Positions 2,095-19,802 of a DNA stretch of 64,000 bases are shown here, piece after piece. This stretch comes from Dictyostelium discoideum (lineage: Eukaryota). The stretch's first letter is position 1, and every line of letters starts with the position of its first letter. The notes beneath the pieces are model-generated. The model made no database searches and was not told where the DNA came from. It worked only from the letters and a program-made list of their open reading frames with translations. Position numbers and translations under genes: made by a program. The stretch spans positions 6,208,001 through 6,272,000 of the forward strand of contig CM000151.3 of the NCBI GenBank assembly GCA_000004695.1, given 5' to 3'.

Positions 2095-2314
2095 TATTTT
2101 TTTTTTTATTAAAAATAGTTTTTTTTTACCACTATCACCTACAACTTTTTTTTGGGGAGTGCACAAATAATAAAAATTTAAAAGTAAAAAAAAAAGAGAA
2201 GAACCCACCAGCGGTGTATATAATTATTTTTAACCACTTCAATGCTGAAATTTTTACTTTTTTTTTTTTTTTATTTTTTTTCAAAATTTAAAATTAACTA
2301 AAAATTTAATTTAA

Positions 2315-2322
2315 ACCCATAA
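2315..2322 (+). promoter_or_regulatory. DUSE-like motif ACCCATAA
   Basis: Matches [AT]CCCA[CT]AA. About 58 bp upstream of the GC-richer element starting near 2378. Confidence 0.45.
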
Positions 2323-2377
2323 ATAAATCCTTATTCAAATACAAAATTGAATTTAAGATTTTTTTATTATTATTTTA

Positions 2378-2471
2378 TTGGATGGTTGGAGAGGAATTGT
2401 ACGTGCCATCCTGCAAACGTATCTCTAATGGCCAAGGTTAACGTATTGAGGGTGATTTCTCTACCACCATC
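2378..2471 (+). ncRNA. Candidate ncRNA of about 94 nt with a 12-bp terminal stem, ending in a poly-T terminator
   Basis: 5' GATGGTTGGAGAG pairs with 3' CTCTACCACCATC (two 1-nt bulges). The segment is the only non-AT-rich stretch here. T17 run at 2472-2488. DUSE at -58. No ORF. Confidence 0.4.
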
Positions 2472-2609
2472 TTTTTTTTTTTTTTTTATAAAAAAAAAGA
2501 TTATATAATTAAATAATTTTATAAAATTTTTAAAAAATCTAAGGAATTATTAATTTTTGAAAAATAAAAATAAATGTTTATTTAATTATTTGTGGATTAA
2601 TTTTGATTA

Positions 2610-3481
2610 TTAAACTTTTAAAACATTAATAATATCTCCAACTGAAATTTCAGAACCATTAGCCTCATTTTCAAATTCTTGAATAAATTCAGCACCAAAT
2701 AAAAGACCACTATCAAATTTACGGAAAGTTTCTAATGTACGTAATGGTTCATTATCGTCATATGGATTGAGAACACCAGCATCGTAATCTACTGTTGTTA
2801 ATTTACATCTTGGACAACCTGCTGATAATTTCTTTAAAACTAATCCTGAAATATTGATTTTTTCCCATGTATCTTCTTCAAATGATTTATCACCAGCACT
2901 AACTAAAATATTTGGTCTAAATCTTTCCCATGTAAGTGGAGATCTTTGTTCTTCACCATTAGATTTACGAGTTTCAGAAATACGATTATTTAATTCAACA
3001 ATACTTGATTCTGATAAAATATTAGTTTGTGATCCATCACATAATGAAACTTGATGAATTTCTTCGGGTTGTTGTTGTTTTTTATCAATATAAACAGTAT
3101 CAACTTTTCTAGTGTAACTTCCACCTGATGCCATTGTTACTAATCTAACACCATCAATACCTAAATAATTTGAAAACCAAATACTTGGTTCTTCACCACA
3201 ATCTACTACATTTACATTATCTTTCCAAATTCCAACATTAATAACTTCCTTTCTACTAGTGTCATTAATTAAAACACGAAGTTCACTAGTGGTGTTATCT
3301 TTATCTTTAATAATTAACCATTTACCATCCTCTGAAATATTTGGTTGAATTAATGCCATTTTTGGTGCTTTTCTTTGAGTCATAAATCTGCCATTTTCAA
3401 TTAACATAAATCTTCTATCATTAACAAATCCATATTTATCCCATTTACATGATTTAACTTCAATTCCTTTACATGATTTAA
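2610..3481 (-). CDS. MOSC-domain protein (mARC / MoCo-sulfurase C-terminal-like), exon 2 of 2
   Basis: MOSC_N beta-barrel start (YP)IKSCKGIEV..DRRFML, and MOSC signature ...GCPRCKLTTVDYDAG...LRTLETFR. Acceptor tatag|TT at 3481. Phase matches exon 1. Confidence 0.8.
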
Positions 3482-3540
3482 CTATAATGATTTTTTCCAA
3501 AAAAAAAAAAAAAAAAAAAAATGTGTAAACATTAATATAA

Positions 3541-3551
3541 TTATAATAGTA

Positions 3552-3640
<89 letters not shown>
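3541..3640. repeat. (TAA)n microsatellite, about 33 units (within MOSC intron 1)
   Basis: Perfect TAA repeats visible directly in the sequence. Confidence 0.95.
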
Positions 3641-3641
<1 letters not shown>

Positions 3642-3652
3642 TTAATACAAAC

Positions 3653-3824
3653 TTGGATAAATTATAATTTTCTTAATTTTAATTTTTTGGTCTGATGAAC
3701 AACTATCTAATTTTAAATTGTTATTATTATAGAATGCATATGCATTCAAAGCTAAAATACCAGCACCAATAAAAAAATTAATATTTGATTTAACAAATTC
3801 AATCAATAAATTATTTGTTGACAT
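3653..3824 (-). CDS. MOSC-domain protein exon 1 of 2 (N-terminal TM anchor)
   Basis: Real ATG at 3824. Encodes TM helix NFFIGAGILALNAYAFY and ends ...KKIIIYP. Donor A|GTTTGT at 3652; the spliced product reads IYP-I-KSCKG, matching the mARC WIYPVKSCKG motif. The intron contains (TAA)33. Confidence 0.55.
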
Positions 3825-4056
3825 TTTTTATTATATTGATGTTGTGTTCACAAAAATCCTTTAAAAAAAAAAATAAAAAATTAAATAAAAAATTAAAAAA
3901 AAAGAAAAAAAAAAATGATCAAAATTAAAAAAACAAAACTTCGAACACATCATTCGCTACGGTTTTTAAAAAAAATCTTTTTTTTAAAAAATGATTTTTC
4001 GAATTGGTTGTTTCTTCTTTTTTATTCTTTGTCTTTTTAAAAATTATAGCATGGTG

Positions 4057-4096
<40 letters not shown>

Positions 4097-4249
4097 GATT
4101 TTATTTCTTTTTTAAATTTAAAGAAATTTCAATCCAATAAAAATAAAAAAAAAAATAAATACCATTTGATTTTCATATTATAAAATCGTTATTACATATA
4201 AATAATTTTTTAATTTTTTTTTTTTTTAATTTTTTATTTTTTTTTTTTT

Positions 4250-4847
4250 ATTTATTAATTTAATTTATTATACAATTATTTTTTTGAGGTTGATTTGAAA
4301 TGAGAGTAGTTGTGTTGGATTTATTATTTAGAAGATCTCTTAGTTTTACACATTGTTCAGTCACTGATATAAAAGTTTCTTCAATATTAATGGATGTTTA
4401 GCACTTGTTTCAAATAATTTATAAATTCCAAGAATCAGCATATTCCATTGCCAATGAATGAACATCAACTCTTTGTGTATTTAAGATCCATTTATTACCA
4501 ATCATTATTTTAATTACCATTATCATTCGGGAGCAAATTCTTCATCATTCTGTTAACCACTTGTAATATAATTAAATGAAATTTGATCAGTAACATCATA
4601 AACGATTATAATTATATTTGAAACTCCAATTTTTTTAATGGTATTAGTAACTTTAAATCTTTGATTTCCTGGTGTATCAAGTATTTGTAATTTAATTGCT
4701 CTCCCTTGAATATAAAATATTTTATAACCTAAATCAACACCTATAGTGCTTATAAATTCTTCAATAAAATTATTTTTCACAAATCTATTTATAATATTAG
4801 ATTTACCTTTTTAAAAAAATTAAAACCAATAAATATTATTATCTACA

Positions 4848-4940
<93 letters not shown>

Positions 4941-4990
4941 TTAATTATTATATTAAGTTTTAATTACCAACACCAGAATCACCTATTACT
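4250..4990 (-). pseudogene. Decayed Rab-like small GTPase (paralog family of 676-1272), with intron carrying (ATT)30
   Basis: Reads FKIIVIGDSGVG|intron(GTAATT...AG)|KSNIINRF...LDTPGNQRF...VYDVTDQISFNYITSG, then a frameshift to WLTE*, a second frame NRMMKNLLPNDNGN*, and later FETSAKHPL... The C-terminus ends KNNCIIN, like GCSIN of the intact paralog. There is no in-frame ATG, and the G1-G5 motifs are split across 3 frames with stops. Confidence 0.5.
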
Positions 4991-5049
4991 ATTATTTTAA
5001 ATAGATACCTATATTGATAATATAATTTTTTTTTTGGTTAATTATTTTA

Positions 5050-5093
<44 letters not shown>

Positions 5094-6902
5094 ACCATTA
5101 CTCATATTCATTCATTCTTTTATATATTTCCATTAAATTTTGGAGCTATTTTTCTATCTAATCTTCATCAAAACCAATAAAATTATTATCACTCCTAGTT
5201 ATAAAATTTTCTTGCGCGTGTGAAATTGAATAAAACATAAAAAAAAATTGTTTTTTTATTCTTTTTTTTTTTTTTTTTTTGTGACAATGAATGTTTCAAA
5301 AAAATAATTAAATTTTATTTTGGAATTAAAAAAAAAAAAAAAAAATATCCGGACTACAAAACAATTAAAAAAAAAAATTTCAAAGAATAACAAACAGTGT
5401 TTTATTTTTTGAAAATAAAAATTTTAATTTTTTATTTTTATTTTTTAAAATTGTTTGAGTAGACTAAAAAAAATATTTAAAATATATTCAAATAGTATGT
5501 CAAAAAATAAATAAAAAAAAAAATGACTGGGATGTTCCAAATTGTATTATATATATTTTTTTGTAAACACTTAAAACACTGGAATCAATTCCCCTGTTTG
5601 TTTTATTTATTTATTTTTTTTGTTTAATTATTGGAATGACATTATTCCAAAGTAATTCGAAATTGTTCTTTATTTTTTTCATTTTTTTATTTTCATTTTT
5701 TTTTTTTTTTTTTGTTTTTTAAAAAAAAAAAGGCCCAAATTTGGAAAAGTATGAGGATAATTTTTTTTTTTTTTTTGTTTTTTTTTTTTTTTTTGTTGAT
5801 TTGCGACCCTCCAAATTTTCAAAACTAAAAAAAAAAATTAAAAAAAAAAAAAATTAAAAAAATAAATTAAAATAAAAAAATTGAAATTAAAATTTTATTT
5901 TTTTTTTAATTTATTTTTTTTTTTTTTAATTTGAATTATTTTCATTTAAAATTGGGATTTTTTTTTTAGATCAAAGAATCCCGGGATACCAGTAGATGTC
6001 GATTTGTTAACGTCAATTCAATTCACATTGTTTTTTTGGCCCATTTAATTTAAAAAGGTTTACAACTGAAAGACCAAAATTATATTATTTCTATTAAACT
6101 CAATTAAATATTATTTTTATTTATTTTTTTTTAATTAAATACAACTTTTTTTTTTTTCTATAAAAAAACAAAAAAACTTTTTTAAAACTTCACTTCAATT
6201 AAAATTACAATTTTTTAAAATAAAAAAAACTAAAAAAAAAACTAAAAAAATAAATAAAATAAAAGATATAATAATAAATAACAAATAAAAAATAAATAAA
6301 AATAAAAAAAAGATTATAATAAAAATAAAATTATATATCTAAATTAATAAATTTCAACATATCAAATTAGATTTTTTTTTTTTTTTTCATTTTAAAAAAT
6401 AATTTTTTAAATAATAAAAACATTAATAAAAAAAGATTGTACCATTAAATAAAAAATAATAATAATAATAAAAAAAAAAAAAAAAAATAAGAATAAAACA
6501 AATTCAAAAAAAAAAAAAAAATAATTAATATAAAGGTAAGAATTAAATTATTATTTTTTTGAGAAAAAAAAGAAAAAAAAAAACAATTAAAACACCCAAA
6601 ACACTACGATATCTCAATAATTCAAAGCCAAACAGATTTTCAAAAAAAAAAAAAAAAATAAAAAAAATATTTTTTTTTAAATTTTTTTTCTTCTTTTTTT
6701 TTAATTTTATTTTCTTTTTAAAATATAACTCTATTCAAAGGTATTAATACTGGTGATTTTTTTTTTTTTTTTTTTATTATTTATTTTATTATTTTTTATT
6801 TATTTTTTTATTTTTTATTTTTTTATTTTTTTATTTTTTTAGTATTTTAGACAATTTAGCGAAAATCAACAAATACATTTCAAAATAATAAAAATAAAAA
6901 AA

Positions 6903-7036
6903 ATGAGTGGATACGTTGGAAACCTTTCACCAGAACAAGAACATCAATTAGGTATTATTAAATCTAAAATTGCAGAAATTAATGATCCAGTTGTAGAAAA
7001 AGAAATTCAACAATTAGATGATTCTATGACCTTAAG
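6903..7036 (+). CDS. CRAL-TRIO (Sec14-like) lipid-binding protein, exon 1 of 2
   Basis: ATG at 6903. Donor AAG|GTATTG. The spliced protein gives the classic CRAL-TRIO N-terminal motif ...SMTLRFLRARKWNL. Confidence 0.8.
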
Positions 7037-7047
7037 GTATTGTATAA

Positions 7048-7083
<36 letters not shown>

Positions 7084-7174
7084 ACCACCATCAATTATAA
7101 ACACACAAAAAAATAAATAAAAACCTCAAACTAATCATCATTTTTTATTTATTTTATTTCATTTTAAAAATTAG

Positions 7175-7777
7175 ATTTTTAAGAGCTAGAAAATGGAATC
7201 TAAAAGATTCATTTGATATGCTCTATGAAGCATTAAAATTCCGAGCAACATTTCAAGATGTTGGAGTTGAAGGTATAACAGAATCAATGGTTGTTAATGA
7301 ATTAAAGAGTGGTAAGAGTTATTTCCATGGTGTTGATAAAGGTGGTAGACCAGTTTGTATTGTTAAAACCAGTAGACATGATAGTTACAACAGAGATTTG
7401 AATGAATCGATGAGATATTGTGTCTACGTAATGGAAAATGGTAAATCAATGTTAAAGGACGGTATTGAAACTTGTACACTTATTTTCGATATGTCTGATT
7501 TTAGTTCAAAAAATATGGATTATCCATTGGTTAAATTTATGGTTGAATTATTTCAAAAGTTTTATCCAGAATCATTACAAAAATGTTTAATTTTAAATGC
7601 ACCTTGGATCTTTATGGGAATTTGGCATATCATCAAACATTGGTTAGATCCAAATACCGCTTCAAAAGTTTCTTTTGTCAAAACTAAACAATTGGTTGAT
7701 TATATTCCAAAAGATCAATTAGAAAGTTCTTATGGTGGAACAAGTACATTTAAATATACTTATGAAGGAAAAGAAGT

Positions 7778-8011: not shown

Positions 8012-9418
<1,407 letters not shown>

Positions 9419-10142: not shown

Positions 10143-11062
10143 TGTTGGTTACTAATAACATTATTAACAGGAACAACAATAACATCATTATCTTGATTGT
10201 TATTTAAAACATTGAAAAATTTACAATTCACACATGACATCATTGGTACTATATTGGAATTTGATGAAGAAAATAAAGAAATTGGATTTTTTAAATAATT
10301 AAATTTTAAATTCATTATTTCATTTTTAACGATATCTTGTGAAGAAGTATGAAATGATGTTGGTACTGGTATCATTTTAGCAAAAATACCAGCATTTGAA
10401 ATTTCATTTGATAATTTTAATAAATCACTATTTTTACCACCAACCATTATAGAATTATCATCACAATAAATTGCAATTTCAATATTTTTATACTTTTTTA
10501 AATAATTTTCATTAAATTCTTTTTCTGTAATATTAATTTTACATAATCCATTTTCAAATTTATTAATATTATAAATGCAATTATCAATAATATTATTATA
10601 ATTATTATTTTCATTCAAAGATAATTTAATTGTTTTCTTTTGTAGGATTGATCTATTATATAAAATATAACAAGCACTTTCAAAATCTAGTAAACCAGAA
10701 CAATATGAAGATGCAATTTCACCACAACTAATTCCAAAATTATAATTTGGTTTAATACCATAATGTTTTAATAATTTAAATAATGAAATTTGAAACATGA
10801 ATAAAATTGAATGAGATAAACATTGTTCACTTAACTCTTCACTGTTTTTATCATCAATATTTCTTAATTTTTCAATCATTGAATATCCAAAATATTTTTC
10901 ATTCAACCAATTATCAACTCTATCCATTTCATTTCTAAAGATAATTTCATTTTCATATAATTCTTTCGACATACCACTCCAATGAATACCTTGTCCTACA
11001 AATATAAAAATAATATTTACTTTTTCATTTTCTTTTAAACCTTTTATATTATTTTCATTCAT
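9776..11062 (-). CDS. Stand-alone acyltransferase (AT-domain-like) protein, tandem copy 2
   Basis: Real ATG at 11062 (MNENNIKGLKENEK...); the ORF-track start at 11149 is non-ATG. FIFVGQGIHWSGM, GISCGEIASSY. About 85% identical in protein to copy 1 apart from the poly-N tracts. Identical 3' flank (aaaaatgctttttaaaaatttattctttat) to copies 1 and 3. Confidence 0.75.
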
Positions 11063-17856: not shown

Positions 17857-18639
17857 AATAAAAATAAAAATAAAAATAAAAATAAAAATAAAAATAAAAA
17901 TTAAAATTAAAATAAATGAAATAAAAATCTTTTTATTTATCTAATTCTTTTACGTGTCAATTGATTATTATTAAATAGTATTGTAGAATTATATAATTGA
18001 TATACATTTGCAAAAGGGGTCTTTTGGTTATTATTATTATTACTATTATTTTGGACTGTGGCAATTGAAAGAATTGATTCTATTTTTTAAAATTAAAAAT
18101 ATTAGCAAGAAATAAATTAATTTATATAATTTTGTATTAAAACAAACCAATGATTGTCATTTTTTTTTTATTGTTTGAAAATATAATTAAAAAAAAAAAA
18201 AAATTCAAATAATCAATTATAACAACAAAAAAAAAAAATTAAAACAAAAAATCACAAATTTATTAATTTCAACATGGGAGCTCATGAAGCAAAAGGAGCA
18301 GTGGAGAGAAGAAAGGCAGACTCAGACAGCAAAGAAAATCCACCATTAAAATAATATAATAAAATGATATAATTAAAAATATAGTTAGTAATATTATTAC
18401 TTGTTTAATATATTAAAATCAATTGTTTAATATAATATAATTATTTACCATTAAAATGTTGTTCACTTCCATTTAAAATAAAATTTTAAATTAAATAATA
18501 GTTCATATTTTTCAATACTTTTTTTGAAGATGGTGAATAAAAAAAAAAGTCTTTGAAGAGGATATTCCTAAAATTACTCTTCTTAAAACATTTTTTTGTT
18601 TGTTTATTTATTTTATTATTGATTAATCTATTTTTAAAT

Positions 18640-18990
18640 TTAATTAATTGTTTTCTTTACTCGTGAAATTTCTCCAAACCCGAATCTTAATCTTGTAGTT
18701 TTTCTTTTTATTGAAGTTAAATTTTGTGAAGTTGGATATTGTAACCTTTCCGGAATTAATCGAGGAGTTAAATTTTGTGAAGTTGGAAATTGTAACCTTT
18801 CCGGAATTAATAGAGGAGTGGATCCATCATCATGATATTGAGTTAGAAGTGGCTGTGCGCATGATGGGCTACTTTGAATACTATTATTATCATCATCCTC
18901 TACAAATTCATCACGTTCTTGTTGGCTACTTTTATTATCTTCATCATCATCATCATCTTCTAAAACTTCATCACGTTCTTGTTCTGACAT
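18640..18990 (-). CDS. Hypothetical acidic protein of 116 aa with two pairs of 17-aa tandem repeats; GC-richer than surroundings
   Basis: ATG at 18990, 38 bp downstream of the tRNA. Repeats SEQERDEVLEDDDDDED/SSQQERDEFVEDDDNNS and TPLLIPERLQFPTSQNL/TPRLIPERLQYPTSQNL, encoded by two 51-bp tandem duplications that preserve the frame. The longer ORF-track N-terminus starts at TTG and reads through the tRNA. Confidence 0.35.
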   Translation of the reverse strand: MSEQERDEVLEDDDDDEDNKSSQQERDEFVEDDDNNSIQSSPSCAQPLLTQYHDDGSTPLLIPERLQFPTSQNLTPRLIPERLQYPTSQNLTSIKRKTTRLRFGFGEISRVKKTIN

Positions 18991-19028
18991 CGAACCAGCG
19001 ACTTTGATGTTCCGCAGTAAAAATAATT

Positions 19029-19101
19029 CACCCATTGTGGGTCTCGATCCCACGACCTGCAGCTTAGAAGGCTGCCGCAATTCCAACTTTGCTAAACGGG
19101 C
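19029..19101 (-). tRNA. tRNA-Arg (anticodon UCU)-like, 73 nt; possibly a diverged copy
   Basis: Cloverleaf GCCCGTT-TA-GCAA-AGTTGGAA-TTGC-G-GCAGC-CTTCTAA-GCTGC-AGGTC-GTGGG-ATCGAGA-CCCAC-AATGGGT-G. D-arm and anticodon arm are canonical, but the acceptor stem has 2 G-U pairs and the T-loop has A54 instead of T54. Confidence 0.5.
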
Positions 19102-19802
19102 TTTGTTGAAAATTTAGTTTTTGTACGGCTATAAATTTATATTTTGATTACAAATAAACTCCTAGAACACACCCAAATTGAGTGATGTTATTAAAAAAAA
19201 AAAAAAAAAAAAAATTTATATTTTAATATTTTTGAATCTCATGTTATAGATATCGAGGAGAATCTACTAACAATTGCATTATTTCATTCAAAAAAAATTT
19301 GTATATTTATATTTTTACTATCAAATATTTGAAAATATTTTTATATATTTTTATAATGTTTACAACATTAAATTAAATTATTATTTGAAATATATTAGTA
19401 GTACATTGTAATTTGTAATGAAGGCGAACGAGGTTTCATTACAATTTAAAAAATATCAATATTTTAATTTATAAATAATTATTTTAATTCTATTATTATT
19501 TTAGATAGATATATATTTAAAATATATTTTTAAAACATATTTAAAATATATCTAAATAATAAAAAATAAAAATATTTTAAATAAATAGACTAAAAATATT
19601 TTTTTTTATTTTTTATTTTCATTTTTTTTTTTTTTTTTGAAAATATCTTTGTGGATTTTAAACAAAAGTGTAAGAGAATATCAAAAAGAACAATAAAATT
19701 CGTCAGAAAGATTTTTTTAATTCCCAAACAGAAGGTGAAATTATTTTTTTTTTTTTTTTATTAATGGTGAAAGTGGTGAAAAGAAAATTCTAAATAAAAT
19801 TA

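Follow-up and report, generated by a model that had tools for sequence, protein, structure and literature searches.

A conserved tRNA-Arg(UCU) gene and a probable gene-fragment insertion annotated as DDB_G0276139 in Dictyostelium discoideum AX4

On the minus strand of a 64,000-nt stretch of Dictyostelium discoideum DNA (contig CM000151.3, positions 6,208,001 to 6,272,000; hereafter the window, whose own numbering is used below), a tRNA-Arg(UCU) gene is overlapped by DDB_G0276139, annotated as a hypothetical protein-coding gene. Three long open reading frames (ORFs) of the window gave exact protein matches to DDB_G0276121, the chloride channel clcC and CCT-theta, all of AX4 chromosome 2. The two genes studied here sit in a 2.5-kb gap, bounded on one side by the end of the last exon of a Roc/LRR gene (17612) and on the other by the start of clcC (about 20081). 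Syntenic intervals were retrieved via clcC orthologues, giving, together with the window, eight loci from five taxa: an AX4-like assembly that is 99.8% identical to the window (L001), D. firmibasis (L002), D. dimigraforme (L003), two D. cf. discoideum strains (L004, from GCA_054859235.1, and L005) and two other D. discoideum strains (L006 and L007). The features discussed in the text are as follows.

19029-19101, minus strand: tRNA-Arg(UCU) gene of 73 nt, called by ARAGORN and Rfam RF00005, 100% identical in the window and L001 to L007.
19019-19023, minus strand: run of five T residues (T5), 6-10 nt past the tRNA 3' end, read from the sequence; a T-run is likewise placed in the other loci.
18988-19002, minus strand: external B box GTCGCTGGTTCGATG, at +27 to +41 after the tRNA, conserved in 8/8 loci, with a diverged flank.
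18640-19035, minus strand: annotated coding sequence (CDS) of DDB_G0276139, 131 aa, with its start ATG (19033-19035) inside the tRNA 3' end.
18867-18983, minus strand: older, imperfect acidic repeat with a period of 57-60 bp, its units (20 and about 18 aa) being 81-88% identical and differing by indels.
18715-18816, minus strand: 51-bp (17-aa) tandem duplication, two copies, 96% identical.
18667-18977, minus strand: core block of about 311 bp, homologous to internal exon 2 of the gene ACTFIY_005601 (about 10413-10710 of its locus, L008) by phmmer, BLASTP, blastn and alignment.
18606-18666, minus strand: unassigned A+T-rich stretch of 61 bp past the homology breakpoint, in which the frame has its final 8 codons and its TAA stop and in which AATAAA-like motifs occur.
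19133-19224 with its flanking repeats, plus strand: poly(A) stub of 69 bp, made of a 47-bp body (19146-19192) and a run of 22 A residues (A22, 19193-19214), read from the sequence.

ARAGORN reported only one tRNA in the 64 kb, the Arg(tct) gene at 19029-19101, and the Rfam RF00005 model, whose gathering score is 29, matched it end to end (1-71) with 59.2 bits (E 2.9e-10). These results bear out the sequence-only reading with which the work began, which had described a 73-nt minus-strand cloverleaf with a UCU anticodon and had proposed that the structure be scored with a tRNA finder. The details it listed also agree with our direct inspection: there are two G-U pairs in the acceptor stem (G1-U72 and G5-U68), and the T-loop is AUCGAGA, with A54 and A60. 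Position 20 is an A, which is an arginine identity element in other systems, while A54 and A60 in the T-loop together with a weak 1-72 pair are otherwise typical of eukaryotic initiator tRNAs. That reading had gone on to suggest a diverged or pseudo-tRNA, and here we disagree with it, given that the Rfam score is twice the threshold and that the tRNA is identical at 73/73 nt in 8/8 syntenic loci, its relative position unchanged. The clcC exon is 91-97.8% identical across the compared taxa (a difference of 2.2-9%), and the tRNA flanks are scrambled and barely alignable among the loci. Because the tRNA is 100% identical despite this divergence around it, we regard the G-U pairs and A54 as conserved features and not as decay. 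Judged from sequence comparison, the tRNA-Arg(UCU) gene is a functional, constrained gene under purifying selection.

The T5 run at 19019-19023 we take to be the expected RNA polymerase III (Pol III) terminator, a predicted role based on general knowledge of Pol III genes. Farther downstream, the GGTTCGA of the external B box occupies +33 to +39 after the tRNA. External B boxes have been reported about 41 bp downstream of 66%, or by another figure about 80%, of the tRNA genes of D. discoideum (PMC3159450, PMC5911963), and both papers credit them to Hofmann et al. (1991). Like other tRNA genes of D. discoideum that have such a box, the present gene, which also has an A box, is followed by a T-run and then by a GGTTCGA-type box about 35-40 bp downstream, and it shares with them the box as a TFIIIC/TFIIIB platform that attracts retroelements, an arrangement that is here conserved across species. 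In contrast to those genes, its internal B box is GGGATCGAGACCC, in which an A replaces the near-universal T54 and weakens the box; relative to the published consensus GTTCRAnYC, the external box differs as well, ending in ...GATGT in the discoideum clade. The external box presumably reinforces TFIIIC binding, and, because the internal B box has an A for the usual T54, the canonical external box may be more important here than elsewhere. It may be that this tRNA, with its conserved A54, A60 and G1-U72, is dependent on the external B box, its internal box being defective.

The ORF next to the tRNA is of a different character. An ATG-initiated frame of 116 aa runs over 18640-18990 on the minus strand and starts 38 bp past the tRNA 3' end, as the sequence-only reading had it, and its ATG (18988-18990) consists of the last three bases of the external B box. 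These 116 residues are the C-terminal part of the DDB_G0276139 protein (P0026, 131 aa), and the frame stays open for 148 codons, back into the tRNA. An exact look-up of the 116-aa ORF gave no match, the annotated model using another start. A Pfam search with the ORF and the antisense ORF returned only sub-threshold matches (SLAIN, 17.4 bits with a cut-off of 27).

It had further been claimed that this ORF is markedly GC-richer than local coding DNA, compositionally odd, and built from two pairs of 51-bp repeats. The first of these claims did not survive measurement. The GC content of the ORF is 32.5%, compared to a mean of 29.3% (sd 8.1%) in 351-bp windows taken from within 15 of its long ORFs' neighbours in the same 64 kb, with 43% of these comparison windows being at least as GC-rich; the high raw GC profile comes partly from the tRNA, whose GC content is 56%. 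The GC contents at the three codon positions (GC1/GC2/GC3) are 0.49/0.37/0.12, a normal Dictyostelium coding signature in which the third-position value of 12% is typical, and by a codon-adaptation-like index the ORF ranks at the 10th percentile, a low value that still falls within range. As for the repeats, the pair at 18715-18816 holds, its copies differing at 2 positions that are both nonsynonymous, but the acidic repeat nearer the N-terminus, with indels and a period of 57-60 bp, is not a second 51-bp pair.

An exhaustive HMMER/phmmer search of 1.84 billion representatives returned one convincing relative of the ORF, P0027 (E 3.1e-16), which is the 376-aa protein KAM9989549.1 encoded by ACTFIY_005601 of D. 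cf. discoideum. The phmmer alignment pairs ORF residues 14-109 with residues 69-147 of P0027, and BLASTP of the ORF against P0027 gave 64% identity (3e-24). The relationship is also evident in DNA: blastn aligned window 18667-18953 with 10475-10710 of L008, with 80.7% identity over 202 bp and 90.3% over 103 bp, and a direct alignment carries the match to a junction at 18977. The matched stretch falls wholly within the long exon 2 of the P0027 gene and ends mid-exon, and beyond 18667 homology to that gene is no better than for shuffled sequence. Because the block is a piece of an exon, the order GC1 > GC2 >> GC3 is what one would expect of it.

The comparison with L008 also separates the two repeats. 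L008 holds a single copy of the 17-aa unit as compared to two in AX4, so the 51-bp duplication is private to AX4. The units of the acidic repeat, in contrast, already have counterparts in L008 (10384-10425 and 10477-10518), and that repeat came with the parent gene instead of arising by duplication at this site. What the fragment contains is part of the linker only (about residues 69-146 of P0027); the basic N-terminus and the conserved C-terminal domain of about 215 aa that are found in the family are absent from it. Between the ORF and the P0027 gene there are 15 differences in 174 gap-free nt (2, 8 and 5 by codon position), with a ratio of nonsynonymous to synonymous substitution rates (dN/dS) of 0.71. 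On these small numbers no purifying selection is detectable, and the block appears to carry no sign of constraint.

The 5' junction of the block has AAG microhomology between target (...GAACAAG|AACGTG) and parent (...GTAAAAG|AATGAG), and about 7 bp of the target that are present in L006 and L007 are missing there in AX4. The block thereby resembles gene-fragment pseudogenes of the processed or captured kind, including filler DNA at repaired breaks, in being a partial, lineage-specific exon copy that evolves neutrally, and in its 3-bp-scale microhomology, its small target deletion and its fortuitously open frame. It differs from them in lying in a landing zone of retroelements, in being annotated as a gene whose start codon is within Pol III control DNA, and in the AX4 proteome, in which we found no donor copy.

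The distribution of the block among strains is narrow. The match of L006 and L007 to AX4 sets in 44 bp upstream of the tRNA, takes in the tRNA itself, the terminator and the external B box, and ends at ...ATGTCAGAACAAG (window 18978); homology resumes at about 18460-18610. Neither blastn nor tblastx found similarity to 18600-18990 in L002 to L007 within 10 kb of clcC, or in the rest of the window. The block is therefore carried by the AX4 lineage only and is absent from two D. discoideum strains, D. cf. discoideum, D. dimigraforme and D. firmibasis. At the protein level, an indexed search of 5.8 billion proteins returned the AX4 protein itself as its sole match, even though other assemblies are annotated.

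Such a pattern could in principle be read in the opposite direction, with the block ancestral at this site and deleted independently elsewhere, so that what AX4 keeps would be all that is left of a gene formerly situated downstream of the tRNA. The downstream flank is indeed different in every locus examined, which indicates that deletions and replacements are frequent. This reading, though, needs losses in at least four to six lineages as opposed to one gain, the outgroups have no trace of the block within 10 kb, and the sole full-length relative is found on another contig, where the neighbouring genes are different and there is no tRNA; we judge it to be highly improbable. Because the block is absent from L002 to L007, a single gain in the AX4/NC4 lineage is, for the loci compared, more parsimonious than four to six losses.

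The position of the block raises the question of retroelements. Its start lies at +52, counted from the tRNA, and 13 bp beyond the external B box; the ORF has the sense of the tRNA. TRE3 inserts 40-150 bp downstream of a tRNA gene and with the orientation of that gene, directed there by one or the other B box, and Skipper-2 has been reported 8-23 bp downstream of tRNA genes (PMC5911963). The block start lies within the TRE3 window, and position, distance to the external B box and orientation are all shared with TRE3; moreover, the same tRNA has retroelement insertions upstream of it in AX4 and in L004 (described below). On these grounds the block could be a degenerate piece of a known tRNA-targeted retrotransposon (TRE3, Skipper-2/DGLT-P or DGLT-A). 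The contents of the block speak otherwise. Neither the indexed nor the exhaustive protein search found similarity of the ORF to proteins of TRE, DGLT-A or Skipper elements, and Pfam found no reverse transcriptase (RT) or apurinic/apyrimidinic endonuclease (APE) domain in it. The block has no similarity to the Ty3/gypsy element of L004 or to the RT-rich contig L009, and it has no terminal repeats and no long terminal repeat (LTR). Unlike TRE3, it has no similarity to ORF1 or to the APE/RT/zinc-finger ORF2, neither an oligo(A) tail nor a target duplication is clear in it, and it comes from an unrelated 376-aa gene, with the 3' side truncated as well as the 5' side; the relative P0027 is itself without RT, integrase or gag domains. 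We regard a retrotransposon remnant in this strict sense as very unlikely. The sequence-only reading had raised a mobile-element remnant rather than a host gene, and of this the second half stands, the block being a lineage-specific insertion at +52 and not a conserved host gene. Of the first half, the lineage-specific insertion in a landing zone remains, and the match to TRE3, TRE5, DGLT-A or Skipper proteins does not.

Taken together, the locus quite probably consists of a working tRNA gene and a doubly truncated, lineage-specific relic of a gene fragment, DDB_G0276139 most likely not being a real gene. In this scenario, an internal fragment of about 311 bp from a gene of about 376 aa would have lodged directly past the external B box in the AX4/NC4 lineage. 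The fragment would have kept its parental frame, and by accident that frame would have been open upstream, through the external B box and into the tRNA; the GGTTCGATG of the external B box would supply the ATG, and the frame would close 8 codons past the end of the homology. Because the frame was open in this accidental way, gene finders would have called the 131-aa protein DDB_G0276139. The 51-bp duplication would then have arisen in place by slippage. For the arrival itself, mis-templated reverse transcription by the machinery of a tRNA-targeted retroelement is plausible because the +52 position and the tRNA orientation fit the landing window of TRE3. Capture during double-strand-break repair, with filler DNA, or erosion of a larger insertion would be about equally likely alternatives.

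Whether DDB_G0276139 might instead be a real, very young gene, made of a captured exon and a start codon from the external B box and encoding a small acidic protein, has to be asked because it is annotated in two assemblies and its ORF is intact, with a coding-type composition by codon position and 148 codons without a stop. The composition, though, is inherited from the parent exon. Conservation is confined to one lineage, with a dN/dS of about 0.7, and the ORF is without the C-terminal domain that the family conserves. The 5' region is made up of a Pol III terminator and a TFIIIC site, with the tRNA 38 bp away and the annotated start within it, and a literature search for the DDB_G0276139 identifier found no mention. 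A young gene is thus, in our estimation, unlikely. We favour the relic because domains are missing, because purifying selection is undetected, and because there is no room for a promoter of its own, the 38 bp to the Pol III gene holding the terminator and the TFIIIC site. DDB_G0276139 would accordingly most likely be an untranslated pseudogene relic, going by its sequence.

We would like to note several points that tell against the relic. The ORF is intact (116 aa, in a frame open for 148 codons) and may be translated, and the dN/dS value is drawn from 15 substitutions only. By inspection there is no clear target-site duplication or poly(A) tail at the block, the best flanking repeat matching at 9/13; an A7 run at 18591-18605 is present in the empty site of L006 as well. 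The block is carried by one independent lineage, L001 being 99.8% identical to the window, and the direction of the change comes from parsimony over six other loci. Finally, there may be a closer donor copy elsewhere in the AX4 genome, or the block may have an identity as a non-coding repeat.

If the relic reading is accepted, its main value is a correction of the annotation, and our current understanding is not overturned by it. DDB_G0276139 should probably become a pseudogene fragment, and its CDS should not overlap the tRNA gene.

The other side of the tRNA also carries an insertion in AX4. On either side of the poly(A) stub stands one copy of a 13-bp sequence, AAATTTATATTTT (19133-19145 and 19212-19224), repeated exactly and in direct orientation. 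The stub lies 44-45 bp upstream of the tRNA 5' end and has its poly(A) on the far side from the tRNA; L006 and L007 have an empty site. A 13-bp repeat is by itself weak evidence, the DNA being A+T-rich. We found no second copy of the stub in the compared loci, and a literature search for its sequence found nothing. TRE5 elements insert 40-54 bp upstream of tRNA genes with their 5' end toward the tRNA (PMC3159450, PMC5911963). The stub agrees with TRE5 in its distance upstream, in having A22 distal to the tRNA, in its 13-bp target duplication and in its extreme 5' truncation, and it looks like an extremely 5'-truncated TRE5-type retroelement, a likeness that comes from position, orientation, poly(A) and target duplication.

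In L004, this tRNA has immediately upstream of it a Ty3/gypsy LTR element (2132-6597) that encodes gag, protease, RT, RNase H and integrase and that pushes clcC about 7.5 kb away. This tRNA, then, is one that attracts retroelements, as the AX4 upstream stub and the L004 Ty3/gypsy element illustrate. L004 also has a separate insertion (1-1600) with a 415-aa ORF, which starts about 96 bp downstream of the tRNA, a TRE3 position; the ORF has no Pfam match and no match to the other compared loci. In D. firmibasis, L002 has tRNA-like repeats (GGGGGCTTAGCGTAGTGGTTCC...GGGTTCGAGTC...) at about 6700-7300, two of them in tandem downstream and one inverted upstream of tRNA-Arg. They received no ARAGORN call and had no Rfam match at E <= 0.1, and they may be a tRNA-derived short interspersed element (SINE). 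The locus is a compact, datable example of turnover of tRNA-gene flanks between close strains, in which the tRNA and its external B box are invariant and the flank material differs with the lineage: AX4 has a stub upstream and a gene fragment downstream, a sister strain has an LTR element, and D. firmibasis has tRNA-like repeats.

The parent family of the fragment has few members. P0027 has one other relative, P0030 (ACTFIT_001932; 40% identity), which is encoded in the AX4-like assembly on the 61.8-kb contig L009 (10001-12081), among DIRS-type ORFs (RT and tyrosine recombinase) and other RT ORFs. Scans of metagenomes for relatives of P0027 and P0030 found none. The shared architecture is a basic N-terminus, an acidic, repeat-prone linker and the conserved C-terminal domain of about 215 aa. 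The coding sequence of P0030 is interrupted by about 830 bp, and its model splices out the segment containing His and Asp; the P0027 model bridges in-frame stops via a predicted intron, and reading through this intron restores similarity to the P0030 N-terminus. From these sequences the P0027/P0030 family is apparently small, patchy and decaying.

The P0027 gene is also variable in its presence. A 1842-bp segment that contains it (L008 9813-11654) is cleanly absent, between two conserved host genes, from the syntenic counterpart in D. discoideum strain ACTFIW (L010, at about 9083-9085). ACT is found at both junctions of the segment, and there are 18-bp subterminal repeats (TTTTTTTTCCCATATAAA) at one end. 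We found no terminal inverted repeats of the 1842-bp unit and no termini common to L008 and L009.

By eye, the C-terminal domain of P0027 and P0030 recalls Ulp1/SENP proteases (peptidase C48, clan CE) in the order of its invariant His, Asp, Gln and Cys residues (HFS..., H.DS, IQEQ, NNNCGFF) and in having the Cys immediately ahead of a predicted helix; the domain is not part of the AX4 fragment. The identity of the parent family as Ulp1/C48 was not borne out, as Pfam and both phmmer and profile searches of PDB sequences were negative. AlphaFold models reached a predicted local distance difference test (pLDDT) score of 31 from a single sequence and 52 from two sequences, and Foldseek gave no match at E <= 0.001.

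Because of the 1.84-kb presence/absence unit, the 3-bp junction repeats, the DIRS and RT surroundings, the rapid decay and a possible clan-CE-like domain, we also entertain, as a doubtful but conceivable extension, that the family represents a selfish or mobile gene, so far undescribed, in the D. discoideum species complex, the AX4 fragment then being an insertion footprint that was possibly mobilised into the tRNA landing zone by machinery of the TRE3 type. The family is possibly worth a look as a selfish element.

A last observation concerns the interval that separates the tRNA from the Roc/LRR gene. At window 18253-18330 a short stretch of higher G+C content (...ATGGGAGCTCATGAAGCAAAAGGAGCAGTGGAGAGAAGAAAGGCAGACTCAGACAGC...) is kept between AX4 and the downstream flank of L006 and L007; it may represent either a small exon missed by annotation or conserved non-coding DNA.

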